From assembly GCA_017531985.1 (NCBI GenBank), contig JAFXJY010000034.1, forward strand, positions 1,214 to 65,213: a DNA stretch of 64,000 nucleotides. The letters run 5' to 3'. The notes under the pieces were generated by a model that saw only the letters and a program-made list of their open reading frames with translations, was not told where the DNA came from and did no database searches. Of the stretch, positions 41,892-50,868 are shown in pieces; position 1 is the stretch's first letter, and every line of letters starts with the position of its first letter. The position numbers and the translations under genes were made by a program. Origin of the DNA: Bacteroidaceae bacterium (GTDB lineage: Bacteria; Bacteroidota; Bacteroidia; Bacteroidales; Barnesiellaceae_A).

Positions 41892-42269
41892 TTATAACTT
41901 GAACGATATAGGTAGAACAAAACGAGCATCTACACGTTTGCCATCATCGACAGCAGGAGTCCATCGAGGCATCAGCCCTACAATACGTAACACCTCAGCA
42001 TCGCACTCGGGTGTGAGTCCTCGCAGAATCTTGGCATTTACGACCTCGCCATCAACAGTTATTATAAACTCAACAAATACATTACCCTCAACCTTGTCAT
42101 TTACAGCCTGCTGCGGATATACAAGATTTTGCGACACAAACTCGTACAATGCTGTATCACCGCCCGGAAACTGTGGCAAAACATCGGGGGTAGTTGCAGT
42201 TTGAGCATCAACATGCACCATAACACAGGTTGCAAACATTACGCTAAGTAATAAAAGGACTTTTTTCAT
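41892..42269 (-). CDS. stand-alone TonB C-terminal domain protein with signal peptide
   Basis: PQFPGG, YPQQA, VEGNVFVEFII, MPRWTPA. Confidence 0.88.
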   Translation of the reverse strand: MKKVLLLLSVMFATCVMVHVDAQTATTPDVLPQFPGGDTALYEFVSQNLVYPQQAVNDKVEGNVFVEFIITVDGEVVNAKILRGLTPECDAEVLRIVGLMPRWTPAVDDGKRVDARFVLPISFKL

Positions 42270-42361: not shown

Positions 42362-43612
42362 TTACAATTTAAATGTAATAGGCAAAACAAAATCGACATC
42401 TACGGCAATGCCGTCTTGTACACTTGGCTGCCATCGAGGCATCAACCCTACAATACGCAACACCTCGGCATCACACTCGGGAGTGAGTCCTCGTAATATA
42501 GTTGGGGAAACCACATAACCCTCACTGTTAATAATAAATCGCACCATTACCATTCCTTCCACTTTATCCGACACAGCCTGCGGAGGATATTTGATATTAT
42601 CGGCAACAAATTTATTTAATGCTATATCACCACCCGGGAACTGTGGTAAAGCAGTGCTACTTGCAGTTACCTCTTGTGGCGATAAATAATTAGTGGCAAC
42701 ATTCTCCTGCAATTCAGTTTTGTCAGATAACGAGTGCATCGTATATTGGTACAACGAACCGCCGGCATGGGCTGCAAAGATAAGCATAAACGACACCGGC
42801 AATAAAATAATGTATAATAACCTTCGTGACAAACGACTGATGGGCTGGTTGATTTTCTTTATACGCTCCACCAACATCTTTTGATTAAAGTGTATCCCTA
42901 TCAACCCATCACTGCCACCTTGCACTGATTGTAACAGATGATATTGATAACCCCTGATCGAAAAGGTATCTTTCACAGCATCGGCATCGGCAAGATATTC
43001 GACAAGGCTATGAAATTCCTGTCGAAGTAACCAAGAAAATGGATTAAACCACCCCATAATAACCATTATTTCGCCAACAATCAAATCAATAGTATGACAA
43101 CCTCGAACATGAGCCTTTTCATGCAACAAAATATCTCGCAGCATTGCCGGGTCATATCTATCTACATTCATATATATTACCGAAGCAAAAGAGAATGGTT
43201 TGATAGGAACATGTGGCACACAGACTTTTATGCCCATTACCATCCGGCTATCACTATGCATACGCAAATAAAGGAGCGATAGAACCCTGATGACAAGAAG
43301 CAAAAATCCTAATACAACTCCTATATAGTACAAATCAATCAACATAAAACTATCGGCCATACGTTCAACTCCGACTGTGACAGTCGACAATTCTACACCA
43401 TAACGTACATTAATATTATTATATAGAGCTTCGACACCTTCACGAGGAATATGAAAGCAAGCCAAAGGATATATAAAGGCAAATATCACACCACCCAATA
43501 AAGTATATCGGTGAGCGTGCAAGAAGGTATCGCCCGACAAAAATAACTTATATAGCAAGTATAGAGTCGTTATACCCAACTGAACAAATATTATATAGGT
43601 AAGAATATTCAT
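42362..43612 (-). CDS. M56 (BlaR1-like) metallopeptidase fused to a TonB C-terminal domain
   Basis: TMs, HEKAH zinc motif, WFNPFSW, EYLAD, C-terminal PQFPGG...MPRWQP. Confidence 0.92.
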   Translation of the reverse strand: MNILTYIIFVQLGITTLYLLYKLFLSGDTFLHAHRYTLLGGVIFAFIYPLACFHIPREGVEALYNNINVRYGVELSTVTVGVERMADSFMLIDLYYIGVVLGFLLLVIRVLSLLYLRMHSDSRMVMGIKVCVPHVPIKPFSFASVIYMNVDRYDPAMLRDILLHEKAHVRGCHTIDLIVGEIMVIMGWFNPFSWLLRQEFHSLVEYLADADAVKDTFSIRGYQYHLLQSVQGGSDGLIGIHFNQKMLVERIKKINQPISRLSRRLLYIILLPVSFMLIFAAHAGGSLYQYTMHSLSDKTELQENVATNYLSPQEVTASSTALPQFPGGDIALNKFVADNIKYPPQAVSDKVEGMVMVRFIINSEGYVVSPTILRGLTPECDAEVLRIVGLMPRWQPSVQDGIAVDVDFVLPITFKL

Positions 43613-43631: not shown

Positions 43632-43823
43632 GAATCTGTTTTAATTTTATTTCGAGATTATTTGAGGATTATTTTTGAGCAGATATTCATTTTGGGGATG
43701 CAGGGAATAGCGAGCTATTTTCAAATTTCCGAAATGAATAGATGCCGAAAAGAGCCTCAAAGAAGCCGTATCTATTCTTAGCAATAGCAAATGAACTTGT
43801 TTTATAAAATTCAAAACAGATTC
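43632..43823. mobile_element. 192-bp MITE (non-autonomous, IS5-like ends)
   Basis: TIRs GAATCTGTTTT(-/G)AATTTTAT; TAA direct repeat at 43629-31 and 43824-26; no ORF. Confidence 0.75.
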
Positions 43824-44185
43824 TAAGATTTACCCTTCTCTATAATTCTTACTATTTCCTGCAACTCCTCGGCTGTCAGTTGTTCTTCTTTGACAAAAAA
43901 AGCAACCATATCACGATATGAGTTGGCAAAATAGTTGCGAACGACATTCGACAGGAACTTACGTTTATACTCATTCTCATCAATAGCGGGAGTATAGAAA
44001 TAAACATTTCCATACCGCTTGGCAACTACATATCCTTTTCGCTCTAGATTTTTTATTACCGAGGCAAGAGTTGTATATGGCGGCTTAGGTTCGGACATCT
44101 GTTCGAGAAAATCCTTCACACAACCACTTTTCTGTTGCCATATTACCAACATAACATCTTCTTCTTGAGCTGTCAACTTTTCCAT
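43823..44185 (-). CDS. BlaI/MecI/CopY family repressor
   Basis: LTAQEEDVMLVIW, YTTLASVIKNLERKGYV. Confidence 0.95.
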   Translation of the reverse strand: MEKLTAQEEDVMLVIWQQKSGCVKDFLEQMSEPKPPYTTLASVIKNLERKGYVVAKRYGNVYFYTPAIDENEYKRKFLSNVVRNYFANSYRDMVAFFVKEEQLTAEELQEIVRIIEKGKS

Positions 44186-44345: not shown

Positions 44346-44660
44346 TTACAGCAATTTTTTAACTTTCTCTTCGAGTTGAGCCTTATTGGCAGAACCTACA
44401 TGCTTGTCGACCAATTGACCACCCTTAAAGAACAACAATGTGGGGATATTGCGGATGCCATATTCGCCACTGATTTCATCACCCTCGTCAACATTGTATT
44501 TACCGATAGTTACGCGACCTTCGTACTCGGCTGCAAGTTCGTCAACAAAAGGACCGATTTGGCGGCAAGGCCCGCACCACTCTGCCCAGAAGTCAATTAC
44601 AACGGGTTGACCCGATGCTATAAGTTCTTTTCCTAATTCGTCTGTGATTTTTAATGCCAT
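44346..44660 (-). CDS. trxA: thioredoxin
   Basis: DFWAEWCGPC, IRNIPTLLFFK. Confidence 0.97.
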   Translation of the reverse strand: MALKITDELGKELIASGQPVVIDFWAEWCGPCRQIGPFVDELAAEYEGRVTIGKYNVDEGDEISGEYGIRNIPTLLFFKGGQLVDKHVGSANKAQLEEKVKKLL

Positions 44661-44816
44661 AGTATTTAAAATTTAGAGTTAATAATATTCGTTTTAGACT
44701 GTACAAAAATAACAAATGAAATATACATACACAAGAAAATTGCATGTTAAATTTTATAATTATCACAAAAAGAGTTGTCAGTATCGCATCGAATACCTAT
44801 CTTTGCAACACCTAAA

Positions 44817-45224
44817 ATGCTTATGTATAATGCAAAACATGTCATAGCAATCCTATCGATACTGTGTGCCACTTTTTTGATGGTGACCACATCGATACTT
44901 CCTCATCATCATCATGACGATGGGAGCATATGTCTTGTGTGGAATAGCGATAATGACAAAGGAGAAGCTCACGATCACTCACACAATGGCTGTGATGACG
45001 ATTGTGCCATGAATATCGACATTGTACAAGATGCTTCGCAACCGGGACATGCCTCAAAGGTGTGGCTGATACCATCACTAACAGCCATTCTTGCTTGGGA
45101 CAACACTCAACTACCCGACCCCGATGTAAAGCGTATCACCACTTTATTTTACTACCTCTTACCCTGCGATGCCGGCATTGTGGGGTCGCCTTGCGGCTTG
45201 CGAGCTCCCCCGGTCAAGGCTTAA
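44817..45224 (+). CDS. His/Cys-rich exported leader protein ending in RAPP (DUF6769/DUF2946-like)
   Basis: TATCTTTG box at 44798, signal-like N-terminus, PHHHHDDGSIC, HDHSHNGCDDDC, C-terminus GLRAPPVKA. Confidence 0.8.
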   Translation: MLMYNAKHVIAILSILCATFLMVTTSILPHHHHDDGSICLVWNSDNDKGEAHDHSHNGCDDDCAMNIDIVQDASQPGHASKVWLIPSLTAILAWDNTQLPDPDVKRITTLFYYLLPCDAGIVGSPCGLRAPPVKA

Positions 45225-45347
45225 TAATTTGATTGTATCCGTCTCTCTTTGGATACATAATTCTCCCCCCGTAACAATTATACAACAAACCTTATCACAT
45301 GTGGTTGCCATCACGCATCCATATCTACACATTAATAATACAGAACA

Positions 45348-46586
45348 ATGAAAAAACAAGTTTTCGTCATTCTTACCATTGGTGCATACTTACTGGCAAG
45401 TTGTGCCAATAATACCCATGAACACGAGCATGCTCATGAACATGCTACCACAACTCACAGCCACGAAGGTCACAATCACTCGGCTCATAGCCACGATCAC
45501 AAAGGTCATGACCACTCGGGTCATAGCCATAGCCAATCGGCAGCTACTCATAACCACAACCACGAGGGTGGTATTTCACTTAAACCGGGCGAAGCAGAAG
45601 CCATCGGTCTGACCACCGAAGAGGTGACTCCGGGTGTATTCAATACAGTTATCAAATGTACCGGTCATGTAGTGGGTGCAACCGGCGATGTAATGACAGT
45701 CGTAGCACCACAATCGGGAACAGTTCACTATGCTCGCACATGGAGCGAGGGTGCAGCAGTATCAAACAGTACCGTTCTCTTTACCATATCGTCACGCAAT
45801 GTTGGTGCAGGTGATGCCGCTGAACGCACTCGCGTCACCTACGAGACAGCTAAGGCAGCCTACGAACGTGCCGAAAAATTAGTAGCCGATAAGATCGTGT
45901 CACAACGTGAATATGAAGCAGCTCGCGAGGCTTACGAACAGGCTCGACTGGCATACGAGGCGGTCAGCAGCAGTGATACCTCCGGAAGCGAAGCTCGTGC
46001 TTCAAAAGGCGGTTACATTACACGCCTGTGGGTAAGCGAGGGTGACTATGTTGAGGCAGGAACGCCACTGGCTACAATTGCACAGAACAAGCGTCTGCAA
46101 CTGCGTGCCGATGTTCCTCAACGCTACTACAACGAATTACCCTCTATTACATCAGCCAACTTTGTTACACCCTACGATGAGCATGTATATCAACTCGGCG
46201 AGATGAATGGCAAACTTCTTTCGTACGGACGCAATGCCGGTGAGACATCATTCTTTGTTCCTGTCACTTTCGACTTTGACAACCACGCAGCCATTGTACC
46301 GGGAAGCAGTGTCGATGTATATCTGCTGGGCAAGAGCCGCAACAATGTTATAAGCCTTCCCATGCAATCTATTACCGAGGAACAAGGTCTGTACTTCGTG
46401 TATCGTCGATTGTGCGAGAATGACTTTGAAAAAGTCGAGGTAAAAACCGGCTTATCGAATGGCAGCCGCATAGAGATACTCTCGGGCATCAAAGCAGGAG
46501 ACAAAATTGTTGTCGATGGCGTTTATCGCGTAAAATTGGCAGCCAACAGCAATGTACTGCCCGAAGCACACAACCATAACCACTAA
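45348..46586 (+). CDS. heavy-metal RND periplasmic adaptor (CzcB/CusB-like) with His-rich N-terminus
   Basis: LASC lipobox, 19 His in ~50 residues, VSEGDYVEAG, C-terminal HNHNH. Confidence 0.92.
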   Translation: MKKQVFVILTIGAYLLASCANNTHEHEHAHEHATTTHSHEGHNHSAHSHDHKGHDHSGHSHSQSAATHNHNHEGGISLKPGEAEAIGLTTEEVTPGVFNTVIKCTGHVVGATGDVMTVVAPQSGTVHYARTWSEGAAVSNSTVLFTISSRNVGAGDAAERTRVTYETAKAAYERAEKLVADKIVSQREYEAAREAYEQARLAYEAVSSSDTSGSEARASKGGYITRLWVSEGDYVEAGTPLATIAQNKRLQLRADVPQRYYNELPSITSANFVTPYDEHVYQLGEMNGKLLSYGRNAGETSFFVPVTFDFDNHAAIVPGSSVDVYLLGKSRNNVISLPMQSITEEQGLYFVYRRLCENDFEKVEVKTGLSNGSRIEILSGIKAGDKIVVDGVYRVKLAANSNVLPEAHNHNH

Positions 46587-46600
46587 ACACAGCCAGCCGT

Positions 46601-49600
46601 ATGCTAAATAAGATTATAGAATTTTCACTTCACAATCGCCTGCTGGTATCCGTTATATCGGCTCTTATACTGGTGTTGGGCGTGTACAGTGTATCGAATA
46701 TGGAGGTCGATGTATTTCCCGACCTCAATGCTCCCACGGTGGTTGTCATGACCGAAGCTCACGGCATGGCACCCGAAGAGGTAGAACGTCTTGTAACTTA
46801 CCCCATAGAGACCAGCGTAAACGGTGCCACACATGTACGCCGTGTACGTTCATCATCGACAACAGGTTTTTCGGTTGTTTGGGTCGAATTTGACTGGGGA
46901 ACCGACCTATATCTGGCTCGACAGATTACCTCGGAACGATTGGTACAACTCAATGAAATGCTCCCCGAGGGAGTAGGAACACCCACAATGGCTCCACAAT
47001 CGTCAATTCTGGGTGAGATGATGATTATAGGTCTTACAGCCGACAGTACCTCGCTGCAAGACTTGCGAACATTTGCCGACTGGACTATCCGTCCGCGATT
47101 GCTCTCGATCGGAGGTGTTGCTCAGGCCACTGTCATAGGTGGAGAAATCAAGGAGTATCGTATATCGATTGATCCGGCTCGCATGAAACATTATGATGTC
47201 ACCATCGATGAAGTGCTGGCAGCTTCACGCGGCATGAACGACAATGCAAACGGAGGTATCATATACGAATATGGCAACGAATATATAGTGCGTGGTAACA
47301 TCTCGACCACCGACGTCGATGCCATAGGTCGCTCGGTGGTGAAACGCATCGATGGTCGTCCGGTAGTATTATCGGATGTAGCCGATGTAATCATTACCGA
47401 CAAGTCGCCCAAACTGGGTATGGCTTCGGTTGAAGGCAAGCCTGCTGTACTCATAACTGTCAAGAAGCAACCTAACACCGGTACAATAAAACTGACCGAA
47501 AACATAGAGTCGGCACTCGTTGAGTTGCAGAAAAATCTGCCTGAGGATGTTGTCATGTCGACCGATATTTTCAAGCAGTCGCACTTCATCAATAGTTCAA
47601 TCAACAACGTACAACGAGCCCTCATCGAGGGAGCCATATTCGTCATTATAGTATTATTCTTCTTCTTGATGAATACTCGTACGACACTCATTTCATTGGT
47701 AGCCATTCCTCTATCGGCCATAATATCATTGCTCACGCTTAAAGGCTTGGGATTGACCATCAACACGATGAGTCTTGGAGGTCTTGCCATAGCTATCGGC
47801 TCGTTGGTCGATGATGCTATTGTCGACGTAGAGAATGTATATAAGCGATTGCGAGCCAACCGACAACTGCCCATAGAGCAACGTGCCAAGACCATCGACA
47901 TCGTATTTGAGGCATCGAAAGAGGTGCGTATGCCCATTCTCAACTCCACACTTATCATCATGGTAAGTTTCATGCCTTTGTTCTTCCTGTCGGGTATGGA
48001 AGGTCGCATGTTGCGTCCGTTGGGTATAGCCTTCCTTGTAGCACTTGTAGCCTCGACAGTGGTGGCTCTCACGCTTACACCGGTACTGTGTAGCTATTTG
48101 CTCAACAGCGACAAAGCTCTCAAACAGGACAAAGAGCCTTGGTTGTCACGCAAGCTGCAAGGTATATACAGCAAAGTTCTGAACAAAGCACTATCACACC
48201 ACAAGGCAGTATTAGGCGTTACCATTGCCATCTTTGTCATAACCATTGGCATATTTTTCACACTGGGTCGCAGTTTCTTACCCCCCTTCAATGAAGGTTC
48301 ATTCACCATCAACATAGCCACTCAACCGGGAGTATCGCTCGAAGAGTCGGATCGAATGGGACGTCAGGTCGAAGAACTCCTCTTACAAGTACCCGAGATA
48401 AAGACAGTGGCACGCAAAACAGGACGTGCCGAGCTTGACGAACATGCCTTGGGTGTAAATGCCAGTGAGATAGAAGCACCCTTCGAGTTGCAAAAGCGTT
48501 CTCATGCAGCCGTCAAGGCCGATATTAGAGAGAAATTAAGCACAATATCGGGATTGAATTTCGAAATAGGTCAGCCCATATCACACCGTATCGACGCCAT
48601 GCTGTCGGGAACAAAATCGCAAATAGCCATCAAGCTGTTTGGTGAAGACCTCAACCGCATGTATGCCATCGGCACAGAGATAAAAAACAGGGCCTCGGGT
48701 GTTGCAGGAGTTGCCGACCTGAACATCGAACAACAAATAGAACGTCCGCAGATACACATTGTACCTCGCCGCGACCTCTTGGCTCGCTATGGCATTACGA
48801 TGCCCGAATTTATTGAATTTATCAACGTAGCCATGGCCGGAGAGGTGGTATCGCAAGTGTATGACGAAAGTCGCACATTCGACCTTACAGTGCGTGTCAA
48901 GGATGACAACCGCGACACTGCATCGAAATTGAGAGACATCATGATAGACACCCCCGAGGGCAAAATTCCGCTTTCACAAGTAGCGGAGGTACGTTCGTCG
49001 ATGGGTCCCAATACCATCAACCGAGAAAACGTAAAACGCAAAATTGTTATCTCGGCCAACGTTGCCGATCGCGACTTACGCAGTGTTATAGACGACATCA
49101 GATCGCAAGTAGATGAACTGAAAATGCCCGAAGGATATTACGTCGAGTATGGAGGTCAGTTTGAGAGCGAACAAGAAGCCTCACGCATCCTTGTCATAGC
49201 ATCAATGGCAGCGATTCTCATTATCTTCTTGCTTCTTGTTCAGCAGTTCAAGAGTGCCAAACAATCGGCTATCATCCTTCTCAACCTGCCACTCGCCCTG
49301 ATTGGTGGTGTGTTTATTCTACGATTTACATCGGGTGAAATAAGTATTCCTGCCATTATCGGTTTCATCTCGTTGTTCGGTATAGCCACACGCAACGGAA
49401 TGTTGCTCATTTCACGCTACAATGCCTTGCAAGAAGAAGGAATGCCACTACAACAAGCTATTGTAACAGGTTCGCTTGACCGTCTCAATCCCATCTTGAT
49501 GACAGCATTGACATCGGCACTTGCACTTATCCCCTTGGCACTCAATGGTAGTGCTCCGGGTAATGAGATACAAAGTCCCATGGCACAGGTTATCTTGGGA

Positions 49601-49684
49601 GGTCTGTTCAGTTCGACACTGCTCAATGCTTTCGTCATCCCTATTATTTACCTTATAACGAACCGCAAAAACAGCTCGCAATGA
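46601..49684 (+). CDS. heavy-metal RND permease (CzcA/CusA family)
   Basis: VDVFPDL, APEEVERLVTYPIE, GSLVDDAIVDVEN, TGRAELDEH, RLNPILMTA. Confidence 0.95.
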   Translation: MLNKIIEFSLHNRLLVSVISALILVLGVYSVSNMEVDVFPDLNAPTVVVMTEAHGMAPEEVERLVTYPIETSVNGATHVRRVRSSSTTGFSVVWVEFDWGTDLYLARQITSERLVQLNEMLPEGVGTPTMAPQSSILGEMMIIGLTADSTSLQDLRTFADWTIRPRLLSIGGVAQATVIGGEIKEYRISIDPARMKHYDVTIDEVLAASRGMNDNANGGIIYEYGNEYIVRGNISTTDVDAIGRSVVKRIDGRPVVLSDVADVIITDKSPKLGMASVEGKPAVLITVKKQPNTGTIKLTENIESALVELQKNLPEDVVMSTDIFKQSHFINSSINNVQRALIEGAIFVIIVLFFFLMNTRTTLISLVAIPLSAIISLLTLKGLGLTINTMSLGGLAIAIGSLVDDAIVDVENVYKRLRANRQLPIEQRAKTIDIVFEASKEVRMPILNSTLIIMVSFMPLFFLSGMEGRMLRPLGIAFLVALVASTVVALTLTPVLCSYLLNSDKALKQDKEPWLSRKLQGIYSKVLNKALSHHKAVLGVTIAIFVITIGIFFTLGRSFLPPFNEGSFTINIATQPGVSLEESDRMGRQVEELLLQVPEIKTVARKTGRAELDEHALGVNASEIEAPFELQKRSHAAVKADIREKLSTISGLNFEIGQPISHRIDAMLSGTKSQIAIKLFGEDLNRMYAIGTEIKNRASGVAGVADLNIEQQIERPQIHIVPRRDLLARYGITMPEFIEFINVAMAGEVVSQVYDESRTFDLTVRVKDDNRDTASKLRDIMIDTPEGKIPLSQVAEVRSSMGPNTINRENVKRKIVISANVADRDLRSVIDDIRSQVDELKMPEGYYVEYGGQFESEQEASRILVIASMAAILIIFLLLVQQFKSAKQSAIILLNLPLALIGGVFILRFTSGEISIPAIIGFISLFGIATRNGMLLISRYNALQEEGMPLQQAIVTGSLDRLNPILMTALTSALALIPLALNGSAPGNEIQSPMAQVILGGLFSSTLLNAFVIPIIYLITNRKNSSQ

Positions 49685-50868
49685 AACGAATATTCATCTA
49701 CATAACAACGGCTGCAATGGCTCTCACCGCAACGGCTCAATCGCCCATAGAGAGCATCATGGAAAGCGTATCGACACATAATAACAGCATCAAATCGGTA
49801 CAACAAGAGGTTACAGCAGCCCAAACCGAATTATCGGCCGAGAATTGTCTTGAAAACCCCACATTCGAGTTTGAGTATTTGTGGGCTGAGAAGCAAGTCC
49901 CCGGAGGAAACAAATATGGTTTTGCCATCATGCAGGGATTTGATTTCCCTACACTCTACTCCGGTCGTCGCAAACTCATCAATGCACAGAACTCGTTGGG
50001 CAATTCACAAGTTAAACTGGCACGCCAAGAAGTGTTGCTGGCCACTCGTGAGTTGTGTATCAAGATTGTATATCTCAACAAGCAAATAAAACTTGTAAAC
50101 GAACGTGAGAAAATTGCACAATCGTTAGTCAAGTTATACAACCAACGATTGGAAGCCGGAGATGCCAACCAATTAGAAGTTAATAAAGTAGAAATAGAAC
50201 GCATCAGCCAATCGACTCGCTTGAAAATGCTCCTTAGCGAACGCGATGCAGCTATCGCCTCACTCATAGCTTACAATGGCGGCAATACACTCCCCGTCAA
50301 CGCTACCACTCTGTCGCAATATCCCATCATATCCATGCCTGCGTCACTCGAAGATGCTGTGAGCCAATGGAGAGAAACCGATGCCACCATGCAGACGCTA
50401 CGCAATCAGCAATTGATGGCCGAGTCATACAGTTCGGTGGCACGTCAAGGATGGATACCCCGATTTGAGATAGGTTATAAGCAAGCCTACGAAGTAGGTG
50501 ATATGTTCTACGGTTTGGCCGTAGGTGTATCCCTACCGTTATTTAAGACCAACAACGAGGTGAAGACTGCCAAGGCTCGTGCATTGGCACTTACCTGGCA
50601 AACAGAAGAGACCCAATCGCAAGTTACCGCCGAAGCTACTCAGTTATACAAAGAAACTTGTGCATTAAAAGCGGCTCTCGCCGATTACGAGTTACTCATG
50701 GTTCAGAACAATCGAACCTTGTTGGTCAAAGCCTTGGAAAGCGGACAAATATCCTTGCTCGAATACATGAGCGACATAGCTCAACTCAATAAGGCCGAAG
50801 AAAACCGATTACTCATCGAGTATCAATATCACAGCAAACTATCGCAACTCAATCGCAACAACTTATAA
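49681..50868 (+). CDS. TolC family outer membrane protein (CzcC-like)
   Basis: Signal peptide, helical repeats, GVSLPLF, ESGQISLLEY; last gene of the operon. Confidence 0.88.
   Translation: MKRIFIYITTAAMALTATAQSPIESIMESVSTHNNSIKSVQQEVTAAQTELSAENCLENPTFEFEYLWAEKQVPGGNKYGFAIMQGFDFPTLYSGRRKLINAQNSLGNSQVKLARQEVLLATRELCIKIVYLNKQIKLVNEREKIAQSLVKLYNQRLEAGDANQLEVNKVEIERISQSTRLKMLLSERDAAIASLIAYNGGNTLPVNATTLSQYPIISMPASLEDAVSQWRETDATMQTLRNQQLMAESYSSVARQGWIPRFEIGYKQAYEVGDMFYGLAVGVSLPLFKTNNEVKTAKARALALTWQTEETQSQVTAEATQLYKETCALKAALADYELLMVQNNRTLLVKALESGQISLLEYMSDIAQLNKAEENRLLIEYQYHSKLSQLNRNNL

Follow-up and report, generated by a model that had tools for sequence, protein, structure and literature searches.

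We analyzed a stretch of 64,000 nucleotides (nt) from a Bacteroidaceae bacterium (GenBank assembly GCA_017531985.1, contig JAFXJY010000034.1, positions 1,214 to 65,213 of the forward strand). The whole stretch is referred to as the window, and positions are counted from its first letter. A small open reading frame (ORF) at 44817..45224 on the plus strand, hereafter the leader, encodes 135 residues, ends shortly after the motif RAPP and precedes an operon for heavy-metal efflux. Comparison of the leader with its relatives suggests that it is a RAPP arrest peptide, which would sense metal co-translationally and control the efflux operon in cis. We place the probability of this reading at about 65%. 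A preliminary description of the same DNA had proposed a co-translational metal sensor for efflux in Bacteroidales, and this proposal is backed by comparative evidence, namely the conservation of RAPP, the gene order and the PHHHH/Cys residues. The motif, its conservation, the synteny, the position of the promoter and a hairpin behind the leader were all observed directly.

A small protein family with a conserved C-terminal RAPP

The leader starts with an ATG at 44817 and ends with a TAA stop codon at 45222-45224 (plus strand), three codons (VKA) after RAPP. Homologue calls begin at the second Met (44823), giving 133 residues. The protein matched the hidden Markov model (HMM) of DUF6769 (PF20558), a Pfam family of unknown function, over residues 9-132 of 135, with 50.2 bits against a cut-off of 27 and an E-value of 5e-13. 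Its N-terminus is basic, then hydrophobic at residues 9-27. In the AlphaFold model, residues 3-27 form a helix, with a predicted local distance difference test score (pLDDT) of 76-91 in the first three blocks of ten residues, and the mean hydropathy of the family reached its maximum, 2.0, at this N-terminal segment. Hydropathy and model together point to a signal anchor or signal peptide at residues 3-27 (44823..44897).

Candidate metal ligands follow this segment. A PHHHH motif occupies residues 29-33 (44901..44915), and its histidines open the string HHHHDDGSIC (residues 30-39), which ends with Cys39 (44931..44933). A second cluster, HDHSHNGCDDDC, covers residues 52-63 (44970..45005) and has Cys63 as its last residue. 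Further on, a second and moderately hydrophobic segment, which includes a helix of the model, was detected by hydropathy at residues 82-94 (45060..45098), about 40 residues before RAPP. The RAPP motif itself, the predicted arrest site, corresponds to residues 129-132 and is encoded by CGA GCT CCC CCG at 45201..45212. Outside the N-terminal helix, the model shows a short beta hairpin at residues 30-40, a helix at 84-92 and disorder at 41-83. The mean pLDDT was 65, the protein being mostly disordered. The preliminary description had listed a 135-residue ORF, an export signal, HHHHDDGSIC, HDHSHNGCDDDC and a RAPP three codons before the stop, and each of these elements was recovered in its place.

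Contigs from RNA libraries covered pieces of the leader (X1, X2 and X3) and of the adaptor and pump genes downstream of it, and none spanned 45260-45345. These contigs are low-depth metatranscriptome assemblies in which DNA carry-over is possible, and they were used for synonymous variants alone. Within the leader, all four nucleotide differences were synonymous third-position changes.

Sixteen relatives shared 50-99% identity with the leader. A more diverse profile was built from 30 DUF6769 members with a mean identity of 26%, and all 30 aligned relatives matched the DUF6769 HMM. With this diverse profile, 2,835 clusters at 50% identity were found at E<=1e-3, and 1,061 at E<=1e-10. The DUF6769 model matched 57 of 301 sampled genomes of the window's order. 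Across the phylum, 4 of 401 sampled genomes contained the family (E<=1e-5). Besides that of the window, they were two genomes from its order and one from its class. A DUF6769 gene is also present in Bacteroides thetaiotaomicron, which served as control genome. Searches on the family name, on RAPP arrest in Bacteroidota and on stalling at upstream ORFs (uORFs) of efflux genes found no literature describing the family; one match to "DUF6769", on Salmonella type VI secretion system effectors, was judged unrelated from its title and abstract.

In the 30-member alignment, the only invariant or near-invariant residues were P29-H33, C63 and L128-P132. Residue counts were obtained from 150 cluster representatives plus the window (n=151). 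P29 was conserved in 150 sequences, H30 in all 151, H31 in 149, H32 in 150, H33 in 148, C39 in 133 and C63, again, in all 151. A CxxxC motif occurred in 36 of these sequences and CxxC in 8. As to the C-terminal motif, within the last 14 residues 142 representatives have RAPP, 5 RGPP and 1 RVPP, so that RAPP or RGPP is found there in 147 of 150. Of the two others, one has RAPP with a 12-residue tail and one lacks the motif. The tail after the motif is 2 residues long in 89 of 148 representatives (range 1-8), and "GL" directly precedes the motif Arg in 125. Among complete genomic loci, 33 of 34 have RAPP and the remaining one RGPP; a further locus, L025, is truncated by the end of its contig and lies outside this set. 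The conservation of RAPP among homologues, which the preliminary description had named as a check of its proposal, is thus borne out.

The motif is conserved as a peptide. Indeed, in the GLRAPP region of 28 loci, all six codons were used for Arg, six for Leu and four for Pro. Since the motif codons vary synonymously, it is the peptide, rather than the RNA, that is under selection. In the rest of the genome, the motif is avoided. ORFs of at least 150 residues (741,428 residues in total) contained no RAPP and no RGPP, as compared with AAPP 4 times, AGPP once and RAPG 4 times, and the leader is the sole small ORF of the genome with a C-terminal RAPP-like motif.

The distances to the motif are also confined to narrow ranges. 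From PHHHH to the motif Arg there are 97-122 residues (median 109), and from Cys63 to the Arg 59-76 residues (median 70, interquartile range 67-72), the window having 66 as counted from its CDDDC. The mean hydropathy of the family showed a second peak 40 residues before the Arg, in sequences that are otherwise unalignable. The middle of DUF6769 proteins is unconserved and predicted to be disordered. This pattern of conserved residues is what an arrest peptide with a metal sensor would be expected to show.

Efflux operon, promoter and spacer

The three genes downstream of the leader, all on the plus strand, encode an efflux system. The first (45348..46586) is a resistance-nodulation-division (RND) periplasmic adaptor lipoprotein with a His-rich N-terminus (TIGR01730, E 3.9e-43; Pfam HlyD_D23). 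The second (46601..49684) is a heavy-metal efflux RND pump of the CusA/CzcA family, scoring 810.7 bits with TIGR00914 against a cut-off of 701.45. The third (49681..50868) is an outer-membrane efflux factor (Pfam OEP, E 2.9e-24). The order adaptor, pump, channel is that of a heavy-metal efflux RND (HME-RND) operon of the CusCBA/CzcCBA type. The pump is the only RND of the genome above the TIGR00914 cut-off; four other RND proteins fall below it and none of them is accompanied by a DUF6769 gene. Residues 20-85 of the adaptor contain 19 His and no Met, a composition which hints at divalent cations as substrates.

Two side observations were made on these genes. The pump stop and the start of the outer-membrane factor overlap by 4 nt (ATGA, 49681-49684), consistent with translational coupling. 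In the adaptor, the RNA-library contig from run X2 has an in-frame 18-nt insertion at 45490, in the His-rich N-terminal repeat region, which suggests that the length of the His tract varies between strains.

The association between leader and adaptor is general. In all 33 loci with downstream sequence, the next gene on the same strand encodes an RND adaptor, recognized in 27 of 27 loci by TIGR01730 as best match with CzcB/NccB as second, and in 6 of 6 by HlyD_D23/HlyD_3. Two loci end before the downstream gene and lie outside this count. Synteny among homologues, another check put forward in the preliminary description, therefore came out in favor of its proposal.

Transcription appears to start just upstream of the leader. 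A Bacteroidota-type -7 promoter box, TATCTTTG, was identified by motif match at 44798..44805 (plus strand), 11 nt 5' of the ATG; it matches TAnnTTTG, which we take to be the Bacteroidota -7 consensus. Its first base is also the first position of the feature delimited in the preliminary description, where the ORF was called promoter-proximal. This holds, the box just 5' of the ORF being the only TAnnTTTG in 44600-45400. A scan for sigma-70-type promoters gave matches at chance level. In the family, 29 of 34 loci have a TAnnTTTG that lies 76-114 nt ahead of the PHHHH codons, and 30 of 34 have one no more than 200 nt ahead, for a background rate of 0.13 per 200 nt. From the end of the box to the first in-frame ATG, the distance was 4-32 nt in most loci. 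No TAnnTTTG was present in any of the 22 leader-adaptor spacers examined. As 30 of 34 loci have the box 5' of the leader and none of these spacers contains it, the efflux genes seem to be transcribed through the leader.

From the leader stop to the adaptor ATG, the spacer of the window (45225-45347) is 123 nt long, with 26% C and 10% G. Across family loci, spacers vary from 51 to 381 nt, which rules out translational coupling between leader and adaptor. Shortly after the stop, TGTATCC(G) (45234-45241) base-pairs with (T)GGATACA (45250-45257). The resulting hairpin (45234..45257, plus strand) has an 8-bp stem and a folding energy of -9.6 kcal/mol, equalled by none of 500 shuffles. The rest of the spacer up to the adaptor start (45258..45347) is C-rich and G-poor, with a GC skew of -0.43 to -0.65. 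Tracts with more C than G were delimited at 45220-45340 in the spacer and at 45060-45180 inside the leader ORF.

Hairpins behind the leader were also predicted at other loci. The first one starts 0-13 nt past the stop in 26 of 28 loci. In the subfamily of the window (the window, L017, L022 and L031-L034), a hairpin of 5-8 bp lies 8-11 nt past the stop in 7 of 7 loci. The stem sequence differs in all seven, and the fact that the hairpin is nonetheless kept amounts to compensatory change. A stalled ribosome covers roughly 15 nt downstream. With a footprint of this size, the start of the hairpin would correspond roughly to the leading edge of a ribosome on the stop codon. The hairpin could plausibly act as a polymerase pause site, giving the ribosome time to decide the outcome.

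In L006, L017 and L022, a T-rich tract follows the hairpin and resembles an intrinsic terminator; the window hairpin has no T tract. The output mechanism may differ between lineages. A scan of 44600-45500 against Rfam at E<=1 returned only a chance snoRNA match and no Rfam family in the spacer. The fold of the whole leader had a z of -2.1 and did not pair the RAPP region with the adaptor start; start-site unmasking in the manner of SecM or CutF was therefore dropped as a candidate for this locus. Rho is encoded in the genome by a 683-residue ORF (G000:C31:36806-38839, minus strand). It far exceeds the 415-position model in length, which fits a large insertion or extension.

Comparison with known arrest peptides

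Two motifs, RAPP and RGPP, are reported to cause a robust arrest insensitive to elongation factor P (EF-P), and both are depleted from bacterial proteomes (PMC12992588). Fujiwara et al. 2025 reported small secretory proteins with RAPP or RGPP upstream of diverse genes (PMC12992588). The leader resembles this class: it is shorter than 300 residues, is predicted to carry an N-terminal signal and thus to be secretory or membrane-bound, has its RAPP at the C-terminus, and lies with a gap upstream of a gene on the same strand, the class including leaders of non-Sec genes such as those of metal homeostasis. In the main text of that article, the word "efflux" does not occur and Cu-related uORFs are described as not found in Bacteroidota (PMC12992588). 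ApdA, ApdP and SecM share with the leader a RAPP (RAGP in SecM) close to the C-terminal end of a small protein, secretory or in the membrane, whose gene lies 5' of a regulated gene. However, they control the Sec/YidC machinery and sense translocation, whereas the leader precedes a metal pump and has conserved metal ligands.

The same architecture would make the leader a monitoring substrate for Sec or YidC capacity, like SecM, ApdA or ApdP, but this is hardly credible, the downstream genes being efflux components in 33 of 33 loci and never sec or yidC, and conserved His/Cys ligands being unexpected in such a substrate.

Closer parallels are found among copper regulators. CruR (Bp2923 of Bordetella pertussis, a DUF2946 protein) has its RAPP three residues from the C-terminus. 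The motif is required for regulation, which is Rho-dependent, and Cu relieves the arrest. The conserved spacing of about 45 residues between CXXC and RAPP was reported to matter (PMC9426467). CruR has also been reported to be mostly disordered, and a polymerase pause site was postulated. Like the leader, it is a small gene that opens an operon and whose product combines a Cys metal motif with an export signal at its N-terminus. Both precede long intergenic regions (162 nt for CruR, 123 nt here), and in both cases there are tracts with more C than G and Rho is encoded in the genome. The two differ in the putative sensor, CXXC in CruR and PHHHH plus Cys in DUF6769, and in the spacing from Cys to RAPP, 45 residues in CruR and about 70 in DUF6769. 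They also differ in their target, which for CruR is a TonB-dependent importer and here an export pump; with a pump in place of an importer, the net sign of regulation must be opposite to that of CruR.

CutF of Rhodobacter capsulatus, also a DUF2946 protein, is an exported nascent Cu sensor that ends in PPP and depends on EF-P (bioRxiv 10.1101/2025.02.05.636593). By analogy, the leader would be an exported nascent metal sensor 5' of a detoxification gene. The CxxxC of CutF also has a counterpart in the leader (CDDDC), and metal-ON logic would be expected in both. In contrast, the C-terminus is PPP in CutF and RAPP in the leader, and the CutF stem-loop masks the ribosome-binding site of the next gene over a short spacer, whereas about 90 nt separate the window hairpin from the adaptor start codon. 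Ozturk et al. 2023 listed 5,334 "CutF-like" proteins, 19% of them (40% after normalization) from Bacteroidota (PMC9973294), and OEP, ACR_tran and HlyD_D23 were among their frequent downstream neighbors (PMC9973294). DUF6769 proteins fit the filters used there and may well be in that list. CruR, CutF and ApdA/ApdP had been cited as precedents in the preliminary description, in agreement with the respective papers.

These parallels concern architecture and not family membership. Even at E<=10, PF11162 (DUF2946) gave no match for the window, and among the 30 relatives it gave a single, marginal match (E 0.067). When DUF6769 was aligned by hhalign with seven Bacteroidota DUF2946-like proteins, which have a terminal RAPP or RGPP of their own, only 15 C-terminal columns at RAPP aligned, with a probability of 84.7%. 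The Cys spacing typical of DUF2946 was also lacking, the CDDDC of the window lying 66 residues before the Arg and not about 45. With no PF11162 match and a profile alignment limited to the C-terminus, the leader was rejected as a DUF2946 member; judged from its sequence, it resembles CruR and CutF by architecture only. In other classes of the phylum (L040 and L042-L046), small DUF2946-like ORFs end in RAPP or RGPP plus 2-4 residues, with His-rich and CxxC motifs some 49 residues ahead of the Arg. Together with DUF6769, they indicate that RAPP-terminal leaders exist in the phylum in at least two unrelated families.

Proposed mechanism, alternatives and flanking genes

In the mechanism that we propose, transcription would start a few bases 5' of the leader and have to cross it before reaching the adaptor, pump and channel genes. 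The nascent chain would go to the membrane through its N-terminal signal anchor, and the region with PHHHH, Cys39 and Cys63 would be exported. At R129-A130-P131, with Pro132 in the A site, peptide-bond formation would be blocked and the ribosome would stall; this expected geometry (Pro131 in the P site, Pro132 in the A site) is borrowed from ApdA/ApdP structures and CruR toeprinting. The duration of the stall would be set by metal occupancy, metal-dependent folding or oxidation of the exported His/Cys region, whose state would change the pulling force on the chain. The stalled ribosome would then decide if RNA polymerase, which the conserved post-stop hairpin would probably hold back, continues through the spacer into the efflux genes. 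Our preferred sign, by analogy, combines CutF-type sensing with CruR-type output: metal would lengthen the stall, stalled and queued ribosomes would shield the transcript from Rho or premature termination, and the operon would be ON. Stalling, metal sensing, this regulatory sign and the coupling step are what we infer from the features described above.

The distances measured in the family can be set against the dimensions of the export path. The exit tunnel takes up about 30-40 residues, and a chain must be about 60-70 residues long to cross the tunnel and the translocon. By these figures, the second hydrophobic segment would be leaving the ribosome at the stall, Cys63 would be emerging beyond SecYEG, and PHHHH and Cys39 would already be exposed. 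Such a geometry would be expected if metal binding outside the membrane, or metal-sensitive folding or oxidation there, modulates how strongly the arrested chain is pulled. A model of the pulling-force type has been proposed for CutF (bioRxiv 10.1101/2025.02.05.636593).

The same arrest leader might also work with the reverse logic. Metal would then relieve the stall, and the released ribosome would invade the post-stop hairpin and cancel a pause or an attenuator, turning the operon ON. Relief of arrest by Cu in CruR fits this scheme. Moreover, given the ribosome footprint, many of the hairpins 0-13 nt past the stop (26 of 28 loci) would be reachable by a terminating ribosome but not by one stalled at RAPP, and in a few homologues, such as L006, L017 and L022, the T-rich tract after the hairpin would be in line with an attenuator. 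However, in the window subfamily the hairpin lies 8-11 nt past the stop, where a terminating ribosome would barely touch it. The window hairpin has no T tract and a scan revealed no terminator pattern, while the published precedent for a detoxifying system, CutF, is stall-ON. Thus, we consider metal-relieved arrest unlikely at this locus and retain a metal-lengthened stall as the preferred sign.

The leader protein might instead be mainly a stable metal-binding accessory of the pump in the membrane or periplasm, such as a chaperone or gatekeeper resembling CusF or CzcI, with a role of LRAPP at the protein level and only incidental stalling. Invariant His4 and Cys residues, constant co-encoding with the adaptor, and a model with a confident helix and a short beta hairpin at residues 30-40 are all compatible with such a protein. 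CzcI, encoded 5' of czcCBA, is likewise CutF-like and reported to be without a C-terminal proline motif (PMC9973294). An accessory would leave unaccounted for, though, that this genome avoids RAPP outside the leader, as bacterial proteomes do in general, and that the motif keeps a position 1-8 residues ahead of the stop. Conservation is lacking in the middle of the protein, which is predicted to be disordered, and the spacers are long and structured, unlike a tightly packed operon. Altogether, an accessory role in place of arrest seems quite improbable, although the accessory-protein and arrest-leader readings are not mutually exclusive.

We also thought of a metal-independent role, by analogy with the arrest-mediated targeting of mRNA in eukaryotes: with three exported or membrane proteins encoded behind it, a leader that has a signal anchor and a C-terminal arrest motif could tether the polycistronic mRNA at the translocon and so place these envelope proteins. 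The invariant PHHHH/Cys residues and their fixed distance to RAPP would be left unexplained by such tethering, and no leader of this kind precedes the genome's four other RND operons. This role is therefore very unlikely.

Several points weigh against a metal-sensing arrest leader as formulated above. Stalling at the leader RAPP is deduced from its sequence, with Bacteroidales ribosomes as the host machinery, and RAPP-like peptides of Bacteroidales were reported to arrest less in the E. coli than in the B. subtilis PURE (protein synthesis using recombinant elements) system (PMC10987492). As to sensing, CxxxC or CxxC occurs in only 44 of 151 members, and a stable metal-binding accessory protein would have just as much use for the conserved His/Cys residues. 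The signal peptide of CruR was reported to be dispensable (PMC9426467), so export need not belong to sensing, and by analogy sensing by the leader in the cytoplasm is conceivable. The pump is about equally similar to ZneA (470.8 bits) and CusA (467.9 bits) and does not point to one metal.

The coupling step, for its part, is not defined by the sequence. From the first base of the Pro131 codon to the start of the hairpin there are 25-29 nt, which is past the expected edge of the stalled ribosome, and the distance of about 90 nt between hairpin and adaptor start does not fit start-site unmasking of the CutF type. The 60 nt after the stop are structured (z<-2) in only 13 of 28 loci, with a mean z of -1.5, and a consensus scan of the spacer found no intrinsic-terminator pattern. 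Finally, C exceeds G in only 13 of 22 family spacers. As a consequence, the account of the spacer in the preliminary description stands for the window (123 nt, a hairpin, a C-rich and G-poor composition) but its composition does not extend to the family, and a family-wide Rho-utilization (rut) site is unsupported.

Comparison at the sequence level supports DUF6769 as a distinct, uncharacterized variant of the known sensors of the CruR/CutF type. A more specific version is possible, though we lean against it. DUF6769 proteins would be independently evolved, largely Bacteroidales-specific transmembrane nascent-chain sensors, with His4 and Cys about 100 and 70 residues from RAPP, just clear of the tunnel and SecYEG at arrest. 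They would read a periplasmic divalent metal (Zn, Co, Ni or Cd, according to the His-rich adaptor) and not copper, and in these genomes the single heavy-metal RND pump would have no regulator besides the leader. On this version, HME-RND operons, and gut Bacteroidales too, would have their first case of arrest-peptide control.

The known cases of RAPP arrest regulation concern Sec/YidC genes and proteobacterial copper genes. If the leader acts as proposed, RAPP regulation would be extended to HME-RND efflux, probably of non-copper metals, and to a phylum whose translation initiation and Rho are unlike those of model organisms. A function would be assigned to a large Pfam family of unknown function, and many gut Bacteroidales would switch on heavy-metal efflux by means other than a two-component system or a metalloregulator. 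The idea is directly testable in Bacteroides thetaiotaomicron, which is genetically tractable and carries a DUF6769 gene.

As to the surroundings of the operon, no metal regulator or two-component system is adjacent to it. The statement in the preliminary description that no metalloregulator flanks the operon essentially holds, with one nuance: a BlaI/BlaR1-like pair lies about 630 nt 5' of the leader on the other strand, and has no recognizable metal-sensing features. The BlaI-like repressor (43823-44185, minus strand) shows no visible Cys-rich tail of the CopY type. Its partner (42362-43612, minus strand) is a BlaR1-like M56 peptidase with a C-terminal TonB_C domain, and a further small TonB_C protein is encoded at 41892-42269. 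Between this pair and the leader, a thioredoxin gene (44346-44660, minus strand) is divergent from the leader. RAPP uORFs sometimes precede genes for thioredoxin-domain proteins (PMC12992588), whereas here the thioredoxin gene runs on the opposite strand. Two loci of the same genus, L017 and L022, likewise have a thioredoxin-like ORF at this place upstream of the leader.

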